Source: Candidatus Nanohaloarchaea archaeon (GTDB lineage: Archaea > Nanohalarchaeota > Nanosalinia > Nanosalinales > Nanosalinaceae). Taken from it: a DNA stretch of 64,000 nucleotides. The stretch covers positions 1,388 through 65,387 of the forward strand of contig JBDGRK010000018.1 in assembly GCA_042218075.1 (NCBI GenBank), in the 5' to 3' direction. The notes under the pieces were generated by a model. The model worked only from the letters and a program-made list of their open reading frames with translations, was not told the origin of the DNA and made no database searches. A program made the translations under genes and the position numbers. Positions 35,944 through 62,124 of this stretch are shown here, in pieces. Position 1 is the stretch's first letter. Each line of letters opens with the position of its first letter.

Positions 35944-36057
35944 TGGGTTCGCCCGGATTCGAACCGGGGATCTTCGCCTTGTAAGGGCGACGTCATGATC
36001 CGGATCAGAACTCGTCTCTTAGACTGATACCCGGATAACCAACTAGACCACGAACCC
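35944..36057 (-). tRNA. tRNA-Val (anticodon UAC) with a ~40-nt intron in the D-loop region (about 35995-36034)
   Basis: The reverse complement reads GGGUUCGUGGUCUAGUUGGUUAU[CCGGGUAUCAG...CUGAUCCGGAUCAU]GACGUCGCCCUUACAAGGCGAAGAUCCCCGGUUCGAAUCCGGGCGAACCCA. The acceptor, anticodon and T arms are all canonical. Confidence 0.8.
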
Positions 36058-56404: not shown

Positions 56405-56851
56405 GTGGGAAAAAGATTCGAAAATGCCGCTGCCGATGGCATCGAGAGTGTCGAAAACCCGGAGATAGAAGGAGTAAACGCAAATATAAGCTCTGGTTAT
56501 AATATTCTGGATGCTTATATTTCGATCTCCACTTTACTCAATGAGTTTAATTCTCCGACAATGGTAGTTGAGGCTAAAAATAATACATGCTACGAAGCGG
56601 GAGATAGAGCAATCGCAGAAATAAAGGGATATGAAGATTGTGGATTGTTCAATCTTATTTTCAAAAATTCAGAGGAACTTCCAGGTCTTTACAGTGGTGA
56701 AGAGCCTGAAGCAGTGGTTGAAGATCGAGATGGAGATATACAAAGCGGCCAGGTAGTATATTACCAGATTTTACCATATGAAATGGTTGAAAATGATCCA
56801 GTTCAAATCACAGGCGAAAATCCAATAGTCCAGAGATTTTTCTCGGATTAG
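56405..56851 (+). CDS. Hypothetical protein
   Basis: ORF only, with a non-ATG start. No motif recognised. Confidence 0.3.
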   Translation: MGKRFENAAADGIESVENPEIEGVNANISSGYNILDAYISISTLLNEFNSPTMVVEAKNNTCYEAGDRAIAEIKGYEDCGLFNLIFKNSEELPGLYSGEEPEAVVEDRDGDIQSGQVVYYQILPYEMVENDPVQITGENPIVQRFFSD

Positions 56852-57393
56852 GGAGTTACCCTTTCCACCTCGTAATAAGTCACCTGCCTCTCCGCGTCGA
56901 CCACCGCCCAGAGCATCGTTGCTCGAATATTGTGTGCGAGCCTCACCGCCCTTGACATCTCTTGGAAGCTGGTGTTGTAATCCTCAGGTACTGCATGCAC
57001 AATCCACTTGGTATGCTCGTGGTCTTCCTTCGGCCCGTCCTTGTAAGGATTGACTCCCCTTGGATAGACCCTGAAGTGGGCTCCGAACTTGAAACCTGTC
57101 TTCACAATAAAACCTCTCTCCCTGAGATCAGAGTAGGCAGCGTACTTGTGGTCGAACTCGTCATCCTCGCTCGAAAAACGGTGGTAAATCTCCTCCCTCT
57201 CCAGTTTTTCACCATCCTCAACTATCTCAAGCTCCTCCCTATCGACGAGGTGGAGCGCTTCAACGAACGAAAGCTCCAGGTATTCCTCATCGTCAATAAA
57301 CTTCCCGTAGTAAACCTCATCGTGTATCTTCTCCGCTTCTTCCTCGTCCCAGACCTTGACCTTGGTGTCAGAAATTTTGCCTTCTGCAGTCAT
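56848..57393 (-). CDS. endA: tRNA-splicing endonuclease EndA (about 181 aa, the single-subunit size class)
   Basis: ...YSDLRERGFIVKTGFKFGAHFRVYPRG...HTKWIVHAV.... Start taken at ATG 57393 (MTAEGKISD). Confidence 0.85.
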   Translation of the reverse strand: MTAEGKISDTKVKVWDEEEAEKIHDEVYYGKFIDDEEYLELSFVEALHLVDREELEIVEDGEKLEREEIYHRFSSEDDEFDHKYAAYSDLRERGFIVKTGFKFGAHFRVYPRGVNPYKDGPKEDHEHTKWIVHAVPEDYNTSFQEMSRAVRLAHNIRATMLWAVVDAERQVTYYEVERVTP

Positions 57394-57424: not shown

Positions 57425-58107
57425 TCAGAACTCTCCGAGCCCGCTCTGCTCAGACTCATCGATCAGGTCCTGTGAGGTACTCCAGCTCAACCTTGCCTCC
57501 GGCGGGAGTTCGCCTTTCTCTTTCAGGTATTTCTTCAGGAATTCTCTCGTCGGCTTGTCATGCGGGTAGCCCGACTTGAAGTCGTAGCCGTACTTTTTCT
57601 GAAGTTTTTCTACATGCTCCTCCCTTGCCGACTTTGCCACTATGGAAGCTGCTGATACTATATCATATTCTTCATCTGCCCCGTGCTCCGCCACAAACTT
57701 CATATCCTTGAACTTAACCGGCAACTGGTCTTTCAGCTTCCGGATGAATCGGTCTCCATCCGGCTCCGGCAGATCCACAAATACTTCATCCGCATCCGAC
57801 CTCCTTATGACGTCAACAAAACCTTTAACCTCGATCTCGTTCAGGTTCATCACCTGGCTGAGCTCATCTATCTCCGAGGCCTCTATCTCTTTCAGGAAAG
57901 TCCTTCCAAGACCATCAAGCTGCTCTCTCAGTCTTTCCCTTTTCGAATCAGAAAGCTTCTTCGAATCTTTAACTCCAAGTTCGTCCAGTTCGTCCATTCG
58001 GGCCTCATCAACCATGAAGCCTCCAATAAACATCGAGCCGATGACGGGGCCTTTAGGCCAAACAAGACCGGAGATCCCGTTTATCTGCCTGCCTCGTCAA
58101 CGCCCAT
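57425..58107 (-). CDS. rnhB: Ribonuclease HII, coding sequence interrupted by a 32-nt insert after codon 8
   Basis: Exon-like piece 1 is MGVDEAGR (58107-58084), followed by TAA. Piece 2 is GPVIGSMFIGGFMVDE...DSKKLS...SAASIVAK...SGYPHD. The joined sequence gives the canonical DEAGRGPVIG catalytic N-terminus. Confidence 0.8.
58053..58084 (-). other. Candidate bulge-helix-bulge (BHB) intron in the rnhB mRNA
   Basis: GACGAGGC-AGGC-[AGA]-UAAAC...GUUUG-GCCU-[AAA]G-GCCCCGUC. This gives an outer helix, a 4-bp central helix, an inner helix and two bulges. Excision restores the frame. Confidence 0.45.
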
Positions 58108-58118
58108 GATCTTTTTAG

Positions 58119-59174
58119 TCACAAAACGATCACCCTTTTATCAGTCTCAACAGTTTCCCATTCGTGATTCTGTTTTTTTATAAGCCCTAGTTCCTCCAGA
58201 CGATATAGGTTTTTGTACGCAGATTTCTTTCTGACAGAGAAATATTCAGCTATTTCACTCACTTTAAGCGGATTATCTCTAAGGAGATCGAGGTAATCTG
58301 ACTTAACTTCAGAAATGATTATCGCATTTTGATCTTCTCTTATCCAGTATGTAGATCCCTCAGTTTTGTAGTTCATCGCTTTTCCTTCTTCCTTTAGAAG
58401 CATTAAGACATCGCATAACCGGGCCTGAGATCTATCAAATTTTTCAGCCAACTCTCTGGTTTGCCATGGCGTATCCAGAAGTTCGAGGACTTCTTCCTTT
58501 AATTGACCTTTCTGATAGTGTGTCTCCTGAAAGCTCTCATAAATTCTCCAAAACTTATTTCTCTTTCTTAGATGTAGTTTAACAAGATCTAAATCAGCAA
58601 ATATGTCCCAGTTTCTCTTCCTAGTTATTACGTAGGATCTGCTCTCGGCTTTGAAATTATAGTCCAATTCAAAATGATCTAACATAGTTTCTAAGAACTG
58701 GTTCTGCGCTCCTTGAGATATCCTTAATCTCCGACTATTTCTGGCTCCTTCATAGATGCTTCCCTCACCAGCAAAGAAACCCTGAAGAATATATTGATAC
58801 AGTTCAGAATCAGATTTTCCCTTTTCAACCGTATTCTTCCACTTTTTAACAAAATCAGTTGAAGCAAGCCGCAGCAGATAATATGTCTGAGTAGCTCTCT
58901 CATCAAAGTAAAATTTAGTTTTAGCTTTTTCCAGAGAGTTGTAATCAGATCCTTCATTAGGTCTATAGACATACAGTCTGAATCTATCAAGACCGGAAAA
59001 ATCCCGAATAGTTCTATAGAATAGCTCAACTAGTTCAAAGCAATTATTTGTGAAAGTAACCTCTCTTTCAGTTTTTGTATCTCCTTCAGCTAACCGAAGT
59101 CCTATACATCTAGCTGAATCTTTTTTCATGCCTGAAAATTCTTTAAACAGCTTAAAAAGACTATTTAATATCAT
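58119..59174 (-). CDS. Free-standing LAGLIDADG-family protein with C-terminal wHTH domains
   Basis: CIGLRLAEGDTKT and ILQGFFAGEGSIYEG motifs. AT-rich. C-terminus ...LKVSEIAEYFSVRKKSAYKNLYRLEELGLIKK. Confidence 0.7.
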   Translation of the reverse strand: MILNSLFKLFKEFSGMKKDSARCIGLRLAEGDTKTEREVTFTNNCFELVELFYRTIRDFSGLDRFRLYVYRPNEGSDYNSLEKAKTKFYFDERATQTYYLLRLASTDFVKKWKNTVEKGKSDSELYQYILQGFFAGEGSIYEGARNSRRLRISQGAQNQFLETMLDHFELDYNFKAESRSYVITRKRNWDIFADLDLVKLHLRKRNKFWRIYESFQETHYQKGQLKEEVLELLDTPWQTRELAEKFDRSQARLCDVLMLLKEEGKAMNYKTEGSTYWIREDQNAIIISEVKSDYLDLLRDNPLKVSEIAEYFSVRKKSAYKNLYRLEELGLIKKQNHEWETVETDKRVIVL

Positions 59175-59315: not shown

Positions 59316-59390
59316 AGCGGGGTGGAGCAGCCAGGAGTGCTCGTCGGGCTCATAACCCGGAGGTCCCAGGTTCAAATCCTGGCCCCGCTA
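59316..59390 (+). tRNA. Initiator tRNA-Met (CAU)
   Basis: AGCGGGGUGGAGCAGCCAGGAGUGCUCGUCGGGCUCAUAACCCGGAGGUCCCAGGUUCAAAUCCUGGCCCCGCUA. It has an A1:U72 pair and a GGG/CCC anticodon stem, both typical of archaeal initiators. Confidence 0.85.
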
Positions 59391-59401
59391 TTTCAATATA
59401 T

Positions 59402-59941
59402 TCATTTTACTTTAGGCTTGTTGCGGGCAATCTCGTAGAGTTTTGAATACCTGTCAATTAAAGAAACATTCAAATAATAAGATTCATCACAGTTCGGCCC
59501 TGTAATATTTGTATTAATATTTAGAGATTCCATCATAAGTTTAACATCCTTTAAACCGAGTTTATTAACAGATTTAATCCTCATTCTATTGTATTTCTGT
59601 TCGAAATGTCCTTCATCTCTAATAAAGGCTCTTAACCATTAGTATTTCTTTTCTTCAGGTAAATCTAGAATTTGCTCCGATATTCTCCAACAATTCGACA
59701 AAAATCTTTCAAATTTCTCCTGAATCTGTTTAACTATTCCTACAGATTTCACCTTTACTTCATTCCGGTGTCGATACATATCAACACCGTACATTTCCTT
59801 CATATCTTTCCTGAACTCTCTCAGATTTGTCTCATCTTTATTTGTATATATTACAATTGCTCTTCTTTTTCTATCATCTTCATTAGTTTTGTAGAATGAA
59901 ATATAACCGTCTCCACAAAGCCTTGCGTGTATTCCTACCAT
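59402..59941 (-). pseudogene. LAGLIDADG-family gene interrupted by one in-frame TAA (59639-59641)
   Basis: MVGIHARLCGDGYISFYK...LPEEKKY*WLRAFIRDEGHFEQKYNRMRIKSVNKLGL.... Both LAGLIDADG-like motifs are present, in a single frame. Confidence 0.6.
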
Positions 59942-60647: not shown

Positions 60648-60944
60648 ATGGTTCAGGCCTGGAGTCAGCAGGATCAAGATTCTGGAGGAATGACCGGTTC
60701 TAGATGGGAGGATTATGATGTTATTCTGGTGAAACTGGAAAACGGAAGCAACTTGGAAATAATAGAAGCTCTGGAACAGACTAGTATGCCTGAATACTTT
60801 ATAGGGGAAGCGGAAACAGATGATTATGACAGCAGGGTGGCCCTGAAGGGAAGATACACGGATGATTTAATCGATGAACTTGCTGCCAGGGAAGAAGTTC
60901 TGGATGCGAGGGAATTCTCCCTGCTCGAGGGAAATACTGTTTAA
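60648..60944 (+). CDS. Hypothetical acidic protein
   Basis: ORF only. Confidence 0.35.
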   Translation: MVQAWSQQDQDSGGMTGSRWEDYDVILVKLENGSNLEIIEALEQTSMPEYFIGEAETDDYDSRVALKGRYTDDLIDELAAREEVLDAREFSLLEGNTV

Positions 60945-60985
60945 AAGAGTTGGAAAGCCCAATTTATTTATCCTGATGAAACTTT

Positions 60986-61166
60986 GGGCCGGTAGCTCAG
61001 CCTGGCAGAGCACTAGGCTCTTACGCCTCATAGTGCGGATGAGCATCGCATTCGATTATTCTGGGACTCGAGCCGAAGGGCGAGAGTGGACCGCAGTTGA
61101 CCCAGAAGTCGAAGCGAACTGGCTTAGGATACCTAGCCGTCGCGGGTTCAAATCCCGTCCGGCCCA
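60986..61166 (+). tRNA. tRNA-Lys (CUU) with a 107-nt intron at the canonical 37/38 position (61024-61130)
   Basis: GGGCCGGUAGCUCAGCCUGGCAGAGCACUAGGCUCUUA[intron]ACCUAGCCGUCGCGGGUUCAAAUCCCGUCCGGCCCA. Confidence 0.85.
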
Positions 61167-61254
61167 ACTCCAGTTGAATCGGCGCCCAAACCATGCTCCG
61201 CATCGCTTCCAGTTACTTCCAACTTGAAAAGTCAAGAGTTCCAATTTTTATCTC

Positions 61255-62124
61255 ATGAAAATTTACGTTACCGGAGGTACTGGCTTCGTAGGTTCACACT
61301 TAACCCGGAAACTTCTCGAACAGGATCATGAAGTGACCGTTGGAGGATTGAATCCTGAAAATTCCGTACTGGAACTACCTGAAGAAATTGGAAGAGAAGG
61401 GATTGATGTTACTGATCCCGCCAGTCTTGACTTTGAGGGATACGACTGCGTAATTCATCTAGTGGCGCTCTCCCCGCTGAGGAAACCTCCTGCATCCTAC
61501 AGAGAGGTTCACGTCGAGGGAACCAGAAATGTCGTGGAGGAGGCCGAGAGATCAGGAGTCGACAAATTGGTTCACGTGAGTGCTATAGGTGCGGATCCTG
61601 AAGCAGAAACAGAGTACCTCAGGACGAAAGGAAAGGCGCAGGAAATTGTCGAGGAATCTGAACTTTCTTGGAGGATTTTCAGGCCCTCTATAATGTTTGG
61701 GGAAGGCGGAGAATTCATGGAATTCGTATCTAAGCTTGCGACCCCTTTCTTCACTGTACAGCCAGGCAGAGACACCCTATTCCAGCCTCTCTACGTGGAA
61801 GATATGGTCGAAATGGTTGAAGGGTCTCTACAAGATAAATACAATGGGAAGGTATTCGAGGTCGGAGGACCCGAGAAGCTTTCGCTTGGAAATATTGTAA
61901 GTATGGTTAAGAGGTCAGAGGGAAAGCCTGTGATGGTAGCGAAGCTTCCGGACACTTTCTTCAGGTTGGGAATGGAAGTCTCCGAGAGAATCCCGGTCTC
62001 ACCTTTCGGAATGGACCAGTACAGGTCTCTCCAGTCTCAAAACATAGTGGAGAACAACGACGCAGAAAGACTCGGGAAGAAAGAATCCGAGTTAAAAACA
62101 CTCCGAGAATATCTCGAAGTTTAA
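61255..62124 (+). CDS. NAD(P)-binding epimerase/dehydratase-family protein (NmrA/NDUFA9-like)
   Basis: MKIYVTGGTGFVGSHL Rossmann motif. Confidence 0.8.
   Translation: MKIYVTGGTGFVGSHLTRKLLEQDHEVTVGGLNPENSVLELPEEIGREGIDVTDPASLDFEGYDCVIHLVALSPLRKPPASYREVHVEGTRNVVEEAERSGVDKLVHVSAIGADPEAETEYLRTKGKAQEIVEESELSWRIFRPSIMFGEGGEFMEFVSKLATPFFTVQPGRDTLFQPLYVEDMVEMVEGSLQDKYNGKVFEVGGPEKLSLGNIVSMVKRSEGKPVMVAKLPDTFFRLGMEVSERIPVSPFGMDQYRSLQSQNIVENNDAERLGKKESELKTLREYLEV

Follow-up and report, generated by a model that had tools for sequence, protein, structure and literature searches.

How can a gene for ribonuclease HII (rnhB) whose catalytic motif is broken by a stop codon and a frameshift still code for a complete enzyme, and how did the interruption come to lie there? 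These questions are raised by one locus in a 64-kb stretch of nanohaloarchaeal DNA (hereafter, the window; Table 1). A first-pass annotation had proposed that a short element folding into a motif of the bulge-helix-bulge (BHB) type interrupts the gene, with a tRNA-splicing endonuclease gene, endA, close by. Our comparative evidence strongly supports this core reading, and positions 58084-58053 are very probably a BHB intron that tRNA-splicing endonuclease removes from the rnhB pre-mRNA. Directly upstream of rnhB lies a LAGLIDADG gene (59129-58119) that the first-pass annotation had overlooked. Considering the locus as a whole, we regard a BHB intron accompanied by an endonuclease cassette as its best explanation, and a likely one.

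Table 1. Features of the rnhB locus in window coordinates.
Feature	Position	Strand	Basis and remarks
endA, 181-aa alpha-type tRNA-splicing endonuclease	56848..57393	-	Pfam tRNA_int_endo_N and tRNA_int_endo; PDB alignments 1a79, 3iey, 4fz2
rnhB exon 2	57425..58052	-	Third base of the Arg codon, then GPVIGSMFIGG...GLGEF and a stop codon
BHB-like motif, entire	58042..58099	-	MFE fold and covariation
BHB intron (predicted), 32 nt, AUAAACGGGAUCUCCGGUCUUGUUUGGCCUAA	58053..58084	-	In-frame UAA at 58083-58081; removal restores RNase HII
rnhB exon 1	58085..58122	-	Probable GTG start 58122-58120, alternative ATG 58107; sequence and homolog starts
Free-standing double-motif LAGLIDADG gene with two C-terminal winged helices, putative homing endonuclease	58119..59129	-	Motifs, AlphaFold, Foldseek
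tRNA-Met(CAT)	59316..59390	+	Upstream neighbour of rnhB in the ancestral order; shares 96% identity with the tRNA of intron-less L003

A ribonuclease HII gene split within its catalytic motif

Read on the minus strand from ATG 58107, the gene codes for MGVDEAGR and then encounters a TAA (58083-58081), and the open reading frame at 57425-58033, when extended upstream in a different frame, reads GPVIGSMFIGG. As first proposed, the two pieces are separated by exactly 32 nt, and removing them restores a full-length RNase HII: in silico deletion of 58084-58053 yields a 216-aa protein that covers positions 1-198 of the 199 in the Pfam RNase_HII profile (E 1.6e-47). Exon 1 codes for MTKKIMGVDEAG, followed by AG, the first two bases of an Arg codon, and the peptide spanning the predicted junction is DEAGRGPVIGSMF. 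The MGVDEAGR reading stands, but the start at ATG 58107 that went with it probably does not: homologs begin MSKKVMGIDEAGRGP, and the GTG at 58122-58120, probably the true start, gives MTKKIMGVDEAGR. This GTG overlaps the TGA of the upstream gene as GTGA, a stop/start overlap also present in two of the related loci discussed below (L014 and L016).

The minimum free energy (MFE) fold of the region (-31.4 kcal/mol, z = -2.45) contains an outer helix pairing 58099-58091 to 58050-58042 (with a single A.C mismatch) and a central 4-bp helix (AGGC 58090-58087 with GCCU 58058-58055, the GCCU of the intron being its 3' strand), followed by a 5' bulge AG/A at 58086-58084 and a 3' bulge AA/AG at 58054-58051 (slashes mark the predicted cuts). 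The geometry given by the first-pass annotation is thereby borne out for both helices and the bulges, but not for the inner helix, which has 11 bp instead of five and forms a hairpin inside the intron (58083-58059). Its cleavage rule agrees exactly with the reading frame: the predicted cuts, between 58085 and 58084 and between 58053 and 58052, both fall after the second bulge nucleotide and release precisely the frame-restoring segment.

The 5' bulge has 3 nt (A-G/N) and is conserved in the family of related introns. Because the register with the best-paired outer helix leaves 4 nt in the 3' bulge, the motif is relaxed rather than a strict hBHBh'; the alternative register, with a 3-nt 3' bulge, offers one C-G pair followed by a G.G mismatch. 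The fourth nucleotide, already noted as a caveat, is real but not peculiar to one copy, NN/AG being conserved family-wide. Alpha4-type EndAs are not known to cleave a motif with a 4-nt 3' bulge.

From the sequence we infer both cleavage and ligation of the rnhB RNA, along the following lines. In the folded transcript, GAC GAG GC of exon 1 would pair with the codons for G-P-V in exon 2, and AGGC, which combines the third base of the Ala codon with the Gly codon, would pair with GCCU, the four intron bases that immediately precede the 3' bulge. EndA (57393-56848) would then cut at AG/A and AA/AG, and once an RNA ligase had joined ...GGC AG with A GGC CCC..., the catalytic motif DEAGRGPVIG would be whole again. 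In archaea, the RNA ligase for such joining is RtcB. An mRNA left unspliced would terminate at the UAA after 8-13 codons.

The same site in other DPANN genomes

The first-pass annotation had singled out related rnhB genes, with the presence or absence of the insert and compensatory changes in its helices, as informative, and both kinds of variation are found. Sixty non-redundant DPANN sequences are split at the same rnhB site by inserts of 20-52 nt that are otherwise unrelated in sequence, and rnhB is interrupted in 63 of 77 informative metagenome loci, with inserts in the same size range. All intron positions are confined to a 10-nt span. The insert of L001 (ERR11420197), a different organism with ~76% DNA identity over the aligned 1.8 kb, differs from that of the window by two substitutions, one in the loop and one that changes U.G to U-A. 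That of L016 also has 32 nt and is unrelated in sequence, L018 has an insert of 52 nt, and the 33-nt insert of L014 is in frame, yet contains stop codons; insert lengths span all three frame classes. An unbiased scan recovered insertion phases of -7, -1, 0 and +2, each of which restores D-[ED]-x-G-R-G if cuts are placed after the second bulge nucleotide. The longer motif D-[ED]-x-G-R-G-x-x-x-G is restored by the predicted cuts in the window and in nearly all relatives.

The exact BHB is the MFE structure in 26 of the 60 family members, most others being shifted by one register. Across the 60 sequences, pairing at the central-helix positions is 92-100%, the end positions showing 5-6 different kinds of pair, and the first five pairs of the inner helix are 83-97% paired with abundant compensatory changes; 0 of 2000 permutations reach the observed values for either helix. 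Pair counting used a gapless alignment of the introns at the main position (A3); a MAFFT alignment of 56 anchored sequences (A2) was dropped from it because position-shifted introns fell out of structural register. Cells are paired at 90.0% in the 51 main-position sequences and at 74.0% in shuffles (0/500), with covariation scoring 0.527 against 0.206 and double-sided changes numbering 149 against 45; register-slid controls are 36-52% paired. By the same counting, the central helix (helix 2) is 97.5% paired. The outer helix, 86.6% paired and mostly invariant, shows little independent covariation because it consists of conserved coding sequence. G.U pairs are frequent, so that the structure is that of the sense-strand RNA. 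Simply counting candidates with a 4/4 central helix proved uninformative, since 20-60 arise per locus by chance, and was rejected in favour of the permutation and slid-register controls.

Different as they are in sequence, the inserts share a covarying helix and frame-restoring cuts.

EndA and the LAGLIDADG gene upstream of rnhB

EndA aligns end to end with the M. jannaschii enzyme (1a79) and, to judge by its sequence, fits the alpha4-type architecture, with ~180 aa, an N-terminal domain and a catalytic C-terminal domain. Compared with this M. jannaschii alpha4 enzyme, it carries a 7-aa insertion, YKDGPKE (within residues 113-126), at the position where the N. equitans and ARMAN-2 enzymes have theirs. 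By alignment, YKDGPKE corresponds to the L3 loop, which has been linked to relaxed specificity in DPANN alpha4 EndAs (PMC5829648), and the predicted enzyme is not of the classical strict, loop-less class. Its L3-type insertion therefore softens the concern about the 4-nt 3' bulge. A further reservation, that this EndA belongs to the strict alpha4 enzymes, holds for its size class of 181 aa, but the insertion weakens the presumed strictness. The position of endA directly downstream of rnhB (57393-56848) had been correctly noted, but its significance has not stood, as it reflects ancestral nanohaloarchaeal synteny: the two genes are adjacent in every nanohaloarchaeal locus, including those without the intron, and are not adjacent in the intron loci of Nanoarchaeota and Diapherotrites. 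We have consequently dropped this adjacency as evidence for splicing. The window holds a second candidate EndA substrate, a tRNA-Lys with an intron of ~107 nt, recognized by eye and by comparison with L005. An Rfam search of 60900-61300 returned nothing real.

The upstream gene codes for 336 aa from ATG 59129 (the longest ORF, from 59174, has 351 aa) and evolves with a dN/dS of 0.105. Its product contains the motifs GLRLAEGD (also given as GLWLAEGD) and LQGFFAGEG, and both catalytic acidic residues are retained in a 43-member alignment, E15 being at least 90% conserved and E122 invariant. Pfam LAGLIDADG_3 matches are faint and a profile search of the family against PDB sequences returned weak winged-helix regulators only, so that kinship with LAGLIDADG proteins had to be established by fold comparison. 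The AlphaFold model (pLDDT 93.2) predicts the double alpha-beta-beta-alpha-beta-beta-alpha fold of LAGLIDADG enzymes, and its best Foldseek matches are to I-DmoI (E ~1e-5, target-normalised TM 0.5-0.63). Unlike in the classical arrangement, the gene is not embedded in an intron or intein; its ORF ends at the rnhB start codon, upstream of exon 1.

The family is small and patchy, with members in Nanohaloarchaeota, Nanoarchaeota, Diapherotrites and Micrarchaeota. Among metagenome loci that carry the gene, from several DPANN phyla, rnhB follows it directly in 77 of the 77 that are informative, and the gene occupies the same place in L001, L014, L016 and L018; the other neighbours of the pair differ among loci. 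It is absent from nine nanohaloarchaeal genomes with intact rnhB, which came from an RNase HII scan of species-representative genomes (the genome of the window not included) and served as empty-site controls. In 14 loci, it stands beside an intron-less rnhB. Between the window and L001 its pS is 0.60, against 0.77 and 0.86 for flanking host genes (uncorrected for phylogeny or codon usage), and this lower divergence, together with the patchy distribution, points to mobility. Intact rnhB alleles beside the gene have on average 3.5 mismatches at the site, compared with 0.93 in spliced alleles (p = 1e-6) and 0.50 in alleles without the gene (p = 1e-4), again uncorrected for phylogeny or codon usage. 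Beside the LAGLIDADG gene, rnhB is either split by the intron or mutated at the site. In L008, an intron-less nanohaloarchaeal example, the site reads GATGAGGCGGGGAGAGGCCCCGTCATAGG, while L039, L042 and L054 show CGN or Gly-to-Ala variants of it.

These observations lead us to favour, by a small measure, the idea that the intron and the upstream endonuclease together make up a selfish cassette of two parts. The I-DmoI-like protein would cut uninterrupted rnhB DNA at the conserved sequence coding for D-E-A-G-R-G-P, and when the break was repaired from an allele that carries the cassette, endonuclease gene and intron would be copied as a unit. The homology arms would be exon 2 of rnhB and the region upstream (in Nanohaloarchaeota tRNA-Met, possibly the conserved left arm of the cassette). 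By splitting the recognition site the intron would protect the carrier genome, and splicing of the RNA would render it harmless. A free-standing endonuclease-like gene does stand next to rnhB in all 77 loci, and beside an endonuclease-less intron in the 63 of them that bear one, and we propose that homing endonuclease and protective intron may together form a collaborative homing unit. Whether the cassette has spread horizontally among several DPANN phyla, with the intron as carrier immunity and the DEAGRGP-coding sequence as homing site, seems to us evenly balanced.

Alternatively, although we consider it unlikely, the LAGLIDADG/winged-helix protein might bind RNA as a maturase-like helper that offers the relaxed BHB to EndA, or might be a transcription factor expressed together with rnhB; in either case the intron would still be spliced. 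Its two C-terminal winged helices, which lie in tandem, match the domains with which SelB binds an RNA hairpin and also match TrmB, ArsR and MarR regulators, the LAGLIDADG maturase bI3 ranks seventh in the Foldseek comparison, the GTGA overlap implies co-expression with rnhB, and the 4-nt 3' bulge is non-canonical. However, maturases often lose the LAGLIDADG catalytic acidic residues, whereas this family conserves both, and the 14 loci that keep the gene beside an intron-less rnhB offer it nothing to splice. A helper or regulator would also leave aside the signs of mobility and the divergence of intact neighbouring alleles at the site, and we know of no cofactor requirement for BHB splicing.

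Alternatives to splicing, significance and known systems

Splicing is the only satisfactory reading of the insert itself because the site is shared, the helices covary, a single cut rule holds over four phases and exon 2 is under purifying selection. The last of these bears on the notion, very improbable in our view, that rnhB is an ordinary pseudogene, disabled by a short insert or by what a mobile element left behind, with an incidental hairpin. In a single genome viewed alone, the stop codon and frameshift would indeed suggest as much. However, the substitution pattern indicates that exon 2 evolves under purifying selection: between the window and L001, synonymous sites are saturated (pS 0.77) and replacement divergence is low (pN 0.18), giving a dN/dS of at most ~0.07, the comparison with L014 gives 0.093, and in each of 53 loci the exon-2 ORF runs open for 197 codons or more. 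Nor would a decaying gene explain why unrelated inserts of such different lengths all keep a covarying 4-bp helix at a fixed distance from the frame-restoring cuts, and no second rnhB was seen within the window. We give equally little credit to programmed recoding, in which ribosomes would bypass the insert or shift frame over it. A stop codon at the break point followed by a stable hairpin bears a superficial likeness to the take-off site of phage T4 gene 60, but the junction lies inside a codon (AG/A), and in relatives after codon position 0, 1 or 2, so that there is no matched pair of take-off and landing codons from which DEAGRG could result; by length, the inserts represent all three frame classes (33 nt in L014), and a covarying helix with two bulges and cuts at fixed offsets is the signature of EndA, with no role in bypassing. 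A sequencing or assembly artefact, named at the outset as something that would undo the finding and conceivable a priori for any metagenome-derived sequence, is practically excluded by an independent read set (L002, SRR28304479) that is 100% identical over 5.9 kb and by homologous inserts in many independent assemblies from different projects.

To our knowledge, confirmed splicing of archaeal protein-coding transcripts concerns essentially one gene, cbf5, in one phylum, and we know of no account of how archaeal mRNA introns originate and move. Our literature search found no report of an rnhB intron or of any DPANN mRNA intron, and a 2026 splicing review does not cover archaeal mRNA introns. 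The rnhB introns would constitute a second and much larger family of archaeal mRNA introns, with 60 distinct sequences from several DPANN phyla, a structure defined by covariation, a location in the catalytic motif of a housekeeping nuclease and a tie to a specific candidate mobility gene. If the cassette reading is true, it provides the first proposed, testable mechanism for the origin and spread of archaeal mRNA introns. If the endonuclease cuts empty rnhB sites, collaborative homing, known from the group I introns of phages, would also apply to archaeal introns that proteins splice, the placing of the intron in a part of rnhB whose DNA is among the most conserved would be accounted for, and a natural LAGLIDADG enzyme with winged helices and a predictable target would be at hand. 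The relaxed 4-nt 3' bulge offers a natural test substrate for L3-loop alpha-type EndAs. In practice, gene callers shorten intron-split rnhB (calls of 190-204 aa), and DPANN genomes are thereby misannotated as lacking the RNase HII catalytic motif.

The closest known counterpart is the cbf5 intron of Crenarchaeota (Watanabe 2002; Yokobori 2009, PMC2738675), likewise a short, ORF-less BHB-type intron in a conserved protein gene, of 16-44 nt (PMC2738675) compared with 20-52 nt in rnhB. Both show a relaxed cleavage motif (often, in cbf5), presence/absence variation among relatives and an EndA whose extra loop has been associated with looser specificity. They differ in gene, the rnhB intron lying 8-13 codons after the start, within the catalytic motif DEAGRG, and in host lineage, DPANN with an L3-loop alpha-type EndA as opposed to the heterotetramer of Crenarchaeota. 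No endonuclease gene accompanies the cbf5 intron, which has no known route of spread, whereas the rnhB intron comes with a LAGLIDADG gene; cbf5 splicing has been confirmed experimentally, and rnhB splicing is predicted from sequence. Like the canonical pre-tRNA BHB (hBHBh'), the rnhB motif has a 4-bp central helix, each strand of which is followed on its 3' side by a bulge, flanking helices and predicted cuts behind the second bulge nucleotide, but its 3' bulge has 4 nt (NN/AG), its exon helices are made of coding sequence and it has no tRNA body.

The endonuclease half of the proposed cassette has parallels of its own. The rRNA BHB introns that encode LAGLIDADG proteins, such as I-DmoI in the 23S rRNA of Desulfurococcus mobilis, likewise combine a BHB intron with a monomeric double-motif enzyme. 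There, however, the ORF lies inside a long rRNA intron, while the rnhB-linked ORF is free-standing and ends at the start codon of a protein gene, its product has two extra winged helices, and the intron, ~30-40 nt downstream of the ORF, is too small to encode anything. A free-standing endonuclease gene beside an endonuclease-less intron is found in cyanophage S-PM2, where F-CphI neighbours the psbA group I intron (PMC6083498), and T4 mobE/I-TevIII (PMC2790892) provides a second phage parallel for collaborative homing. In these phages as in rnhB the intron occupies the presumed target site, which in rnhB carriers is split or diverged. The phage systems nevertheless rely on self-splicing group I introns and HNH or Endo VII-type enzymes whose cleavage at the intron site has been demonstrated, whereas the rnhB system would pair an EndA-spliced intron with a LAGLIDADG enzyme of inferred cleavage activity in a cellular archaeal host.

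Interrupted rnhB in the window and its relatives

Our analyses indicate that the 32-nt insert in the RNase HII gene rnhB is, with high probability, a bulge-helix-bulge (BHB) intron. On the minus strand the gene reads ATG(58107) GGC GTT GAC GAG GCA GGC AGA TAA and, 32 nt past the break, A GGC CCC GTC ATC GGC TCG ATG..., running into ORF 57425-58033. Without 58084-58053 it yields a 216-aa product that matches positions 1-198 of the 199 in the Pfam RNase_HII profile (E 1.6e-47), as expected from the first-pass annotation of a gene split by 32 nt. The MGVDEAGR reading followed by TAA given there is correct, but the true start is probably GTG 58122-58120 (MTKKIMGVDEAGR) rather than ATG 58107, because homologs begin MSKKVMGIDEAGRGP. 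This GTG and the TGA that ends the upstream LAGLIDADG gene share bases, reading GTGA (58119-58122, minus strand), an arrangement also present in the comparison loci L014 and L016 that suggests co-transcription and translational coupling of the two genes. An A/T-rich cttataaaaaaac (~58192-58180), in the 3'-terminal part of the LAGLIDADG gene and inside a 90%-identity island against L001, could be an internal promoter.

The RNase HII homologs place the lineage in Nanohaloarchaeota. Nearly all of the best 120 RNase HII matches are full-length (219-222 aa); the two N-terminally short ones come from the window's own organism and from L001, which is only 71% identical in protein and, over the aligned 1.8 kb, about 76% identical in DNA. 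L001 carries the same 32 nt with two substitutions (one in the hairpin loop, one changing a U.G pair to U-A). In L014, a Nanohalobium MAG, the loop is one base larger; the resulting 33 nt are in frame but contain two stop codons. Inserts lie at the same codon position in L016 (32 nt, unrelated sequence) and L018 (52 nt). Between L001 and the window, DNA identity peaks at 90-93% in 58020-58230 (LAGLIDADG 3' end, exon 1, intron and start of exon 2) against 57-75% in the rest of rnhB, a peak that fits constraint from RNA structure, conservation of the motif or a tract of gene conversion.

Decay of rnhB into an ordinary pseudogene is argued against by exon 2, which is open over at least 197 codons in 53 of 53 related loci with enough sequence; between insert-bearing genomes its pS is saturated (0.73-0.77) and its pN low (0.18-0.21), so that dN/dS is about 0.09 or lower. 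An assembly artefact is ruled out by L002, a Logan assembly of another run, 100% identical to the window over 5921 nt.

Features of the rnhB region; intron phases are shifts in nt from the site used in the window
Feature	Position or loci	Strand	Description
rnhB exon 1	58122-58085	minus	
rnhB insert	58084-58053	minus	
rnhB exon 2	58052-57425	minus	
endA	57393-56848	minus	181-aa alpha-type protein
LAGLIDADG gene	59129-58119	minus	
tRNA-Lys(CUU)	60986-61166	plus	intron ~107 nt (~61024-61130), another EndA substrate
Outer helix (fold)		minus	UGACG.GGC with GCC.CGUCA, one A.C mismatch
Central helix (fold)		minus	4 bp, AGGC/GCCU
5' bulge (fold)		minus	3 nt, AGA
Inner hairpin (fold)		minus	11 bp
3' bulge (fold)		minus	4 nt, AAAG
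Intron phase -7	L096		BHB cut rule obeyed
Intron phase -1	L052, L056, L093, L095		BHB cut rule obeyed
Intron phase +2	L023, L051, L059, L082		BHB cut rule obeyed
Intron-less rnhB beside LAGLIDADG gene	L021, L037, L039, L042, L046-L048, L054, L055, L057, L058, L062, L076, L080		diverged site

RNA structure and the splicing endonuclease

The RNA 58107-58035 folds at -31.4 kcal/mol (z = -2.45). Its outer and central helices are those first proposed, whereas the inner helix, then given as 5 bp, is longer. Archaeal pre-tRNAs that carry their intron at 37/38 have a bulge 3' of each central-helix strand, and the cut by the endonuclease EndA follows the second nucleotide of each bulge. The same rule places the cuts in the window between 58085 and 58084 and between 58053 and 58052, exactly the deletion that restores the frame, as had been predicted.

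Conservation of this structure was examined in 60 non-redundant sequences anchored at the splice sites. At the four positions of the central helix, 92-100% of sequences pair; its two end pairs, joining intron bases to synonymous third positions of Ala and Gly codons, occur as AU, UA, CG, GC and GU types (permuted means 42-47%, observed value reached in 0/2000 permutations), and the first five inner pairs are 83-97% paired (0/2000). When the 51 main-position sequences are aligned without gaps, 90.0% of cells are paired versus 74.0% in shuffles (0/500), 149 versus 45 are changed at both sides, and the covariation score is 0.527 versus 0.206; sliding the partners by 1-3 columns drops pairing to 36-52%. 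The compensatory changes sought are present in the central and inner helices, and the frequency of G.U pairs assigns the structure to the sense RNA. The outer helix, being conserved coding sequence, contributes little covariation; across the family it pairs best in the register leaving a 4-nt 3' bulge (cut between NN and AG). The exact BHB is the unconstrained MFE in 26 of the 60 elements; in most of the others the 3' bulge has slipped by one position. Frameshifting or codon-matched bypassing is excluded by the introns at -7, -1 and +2, since they obey the same cut rule: their 4-bp helix is perfect or near-perfect and cutting restores DEAGRG in each. These shifts point to intron sliding or independent insertions inside a 10-nt span.

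The EndA protein can be aligned over its whole length with the strict M. jannaschii alpha4 enzyme, apart from a 7-aa insertion, YKDGPKE; extra residues occur at this position in the N. equitans catalytic subunit and the ARMAN-2 enzyme as well. This C-terminal insertion is termed L3 in PMC5829648, which reports it for alpha4-type EndAs from several DPANN lineages and associates it with cleavage of relaxed motifs. As the window EndA carries an L3-type insertion, the caveat of a strict size class is softened. The position of endA downstream of rnhB, once offered as support, is not evidence for splicing, because the two genes adjoin in all nanohaloarchaeal loci, with or without the intron. In L001 an extra 217-aa ORF without Pfam match (1910-2563) lies between both genes; as the window lacks it, the gene order is not entirely fixed.

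The tRNA-Lys(CUU) intron lies at or beside the canonical 37/38 (uninterrupted homolog, L005 1573-1499); its splice sites are ambiguous by 1 nt, as a UCUU/AGGA central helix would put C at nucleotide 38, and neither ARAGORN nor Rfam reports this tRNA. Separately, tRNA-Val(TAC) 35944-36013 (minus strand) reaches no more than 31.4 bits with the tRNA model of Rfam, for which the gathering score is 29; its end is placed differently by Rfam and ARAGORN, and it may be structurally atypical.

The upstream LAGLIDADG gene

ORF 58119-59174 codes for two LAGLIDADG-like motifs and C-terminal winged helices. Its family has only 47 database relatives, all DPANN (Nanohaloarchaeota, Nanoarchaeota, Diapherotrites and Micrarchaeota), and in every fetched context the very next gene downstream is an RNase HII gene called N-terminally short, while the remaining neighbours vary from phylum to phylum. 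Among the best 80 of 135 relatives from a metagenome contig scan with the family alignment, rnhB is next downstream in 77 of 77 loci with downstream sequence, interrupted by 20-52 nt in 63 and intact in 14. In nine nanohaloarchaeal genomes without the LAGLIDADG gene, rnhB is intact, usually with tRNA-Met directly upstream.

Among the catalytic acidic residues, E15 (GLWLAEGD) is at least 90% conserved and E122 (LQGFFAGEG) invariant in a 43-member alignment. The AlphaFold model is confident (pLDDT 93.2). In the PDB its fold is closest to I-DmoI, a homing endonuclease with two LAGLIDADG motifs that belongs to an archaeal rRNA BHB intron; seventh place goes to a LAGLIDADG maturase, and the tandem winged helices look like the WH domains of SelB. 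A dN/dS of 0.105 shows purifying selection on the gene, and its pS against L001 (0.60), lower than that of rnhB (0.77) and endA (0.86), hints at transfer after the hosts diverged.

Beyond tRNA-Met, a second, small double-motif LAGLIDADG gene (59402-59941, minus strand; HARLCGDGY..., LRAFIRDEGH...) is broken by one in-frame TAA into ORFs 59639-59941 and 59402-59584; in all probability it once coded for a homing endonuclease and is now decaying. In L016, a 130-aa LAGLIDADG_1 gene likewise lies upstream of the main one, in divergent orientation.

Proposed homing model and comparison with known introns

Counted against the site consensus GAYGARGCNGGNAGRGGNCCNGTN, intact alleles beside the LAGLIDADG gene have on average 3.5 mismatches, spliced alleles 0.93 and alleles of genomes lacking the gene 0.50 (p = 1e-6 and 1e-4 for the first against the other two, uncorrected for phylogeny). 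Arg is CGN in 8 of 13 of these intact alleles and the conserved Gly of DEAGRG is replaced in three. Besides the CGN codons, the changes put Ser in the place of Ala, and either Ala or Arg in that of Gly. These are possibly endonuclease-resistant alleles. With intact alleles diverged and the others interrupted, carrier genomes have the site split or mutated. For this reason we lean slightly towards a model in which the LAGLIDADG protein would be a free-standing homing endonuclease targeting the uninterrupted DEAGRGP-coding sequence, and the intron, co-converted with its gene, would provide immunity to the carrier.

Searches of the full-text literature brought up neither an rnhB intron nor DPANN mRNA introns nor this LAGLIDADG family, in line with the novelty first claimed. 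The rnhB intron joins the BHB mRNA introns already known, and its coupling to a LAGLIDADG gene that stands free is new. Among archaeal mRNA introns, those of cbf5 (16-44 nt) are established; they have no endonuclease gene, and as of 2009 splicing was confirmed in no other gene (PMC2738675). By contrast, a putative endonuclease gene adjoins the rnhB intron. The proposed cassette would parallel the collaborative homing described in phages (PMC6083498, PMC2790892).
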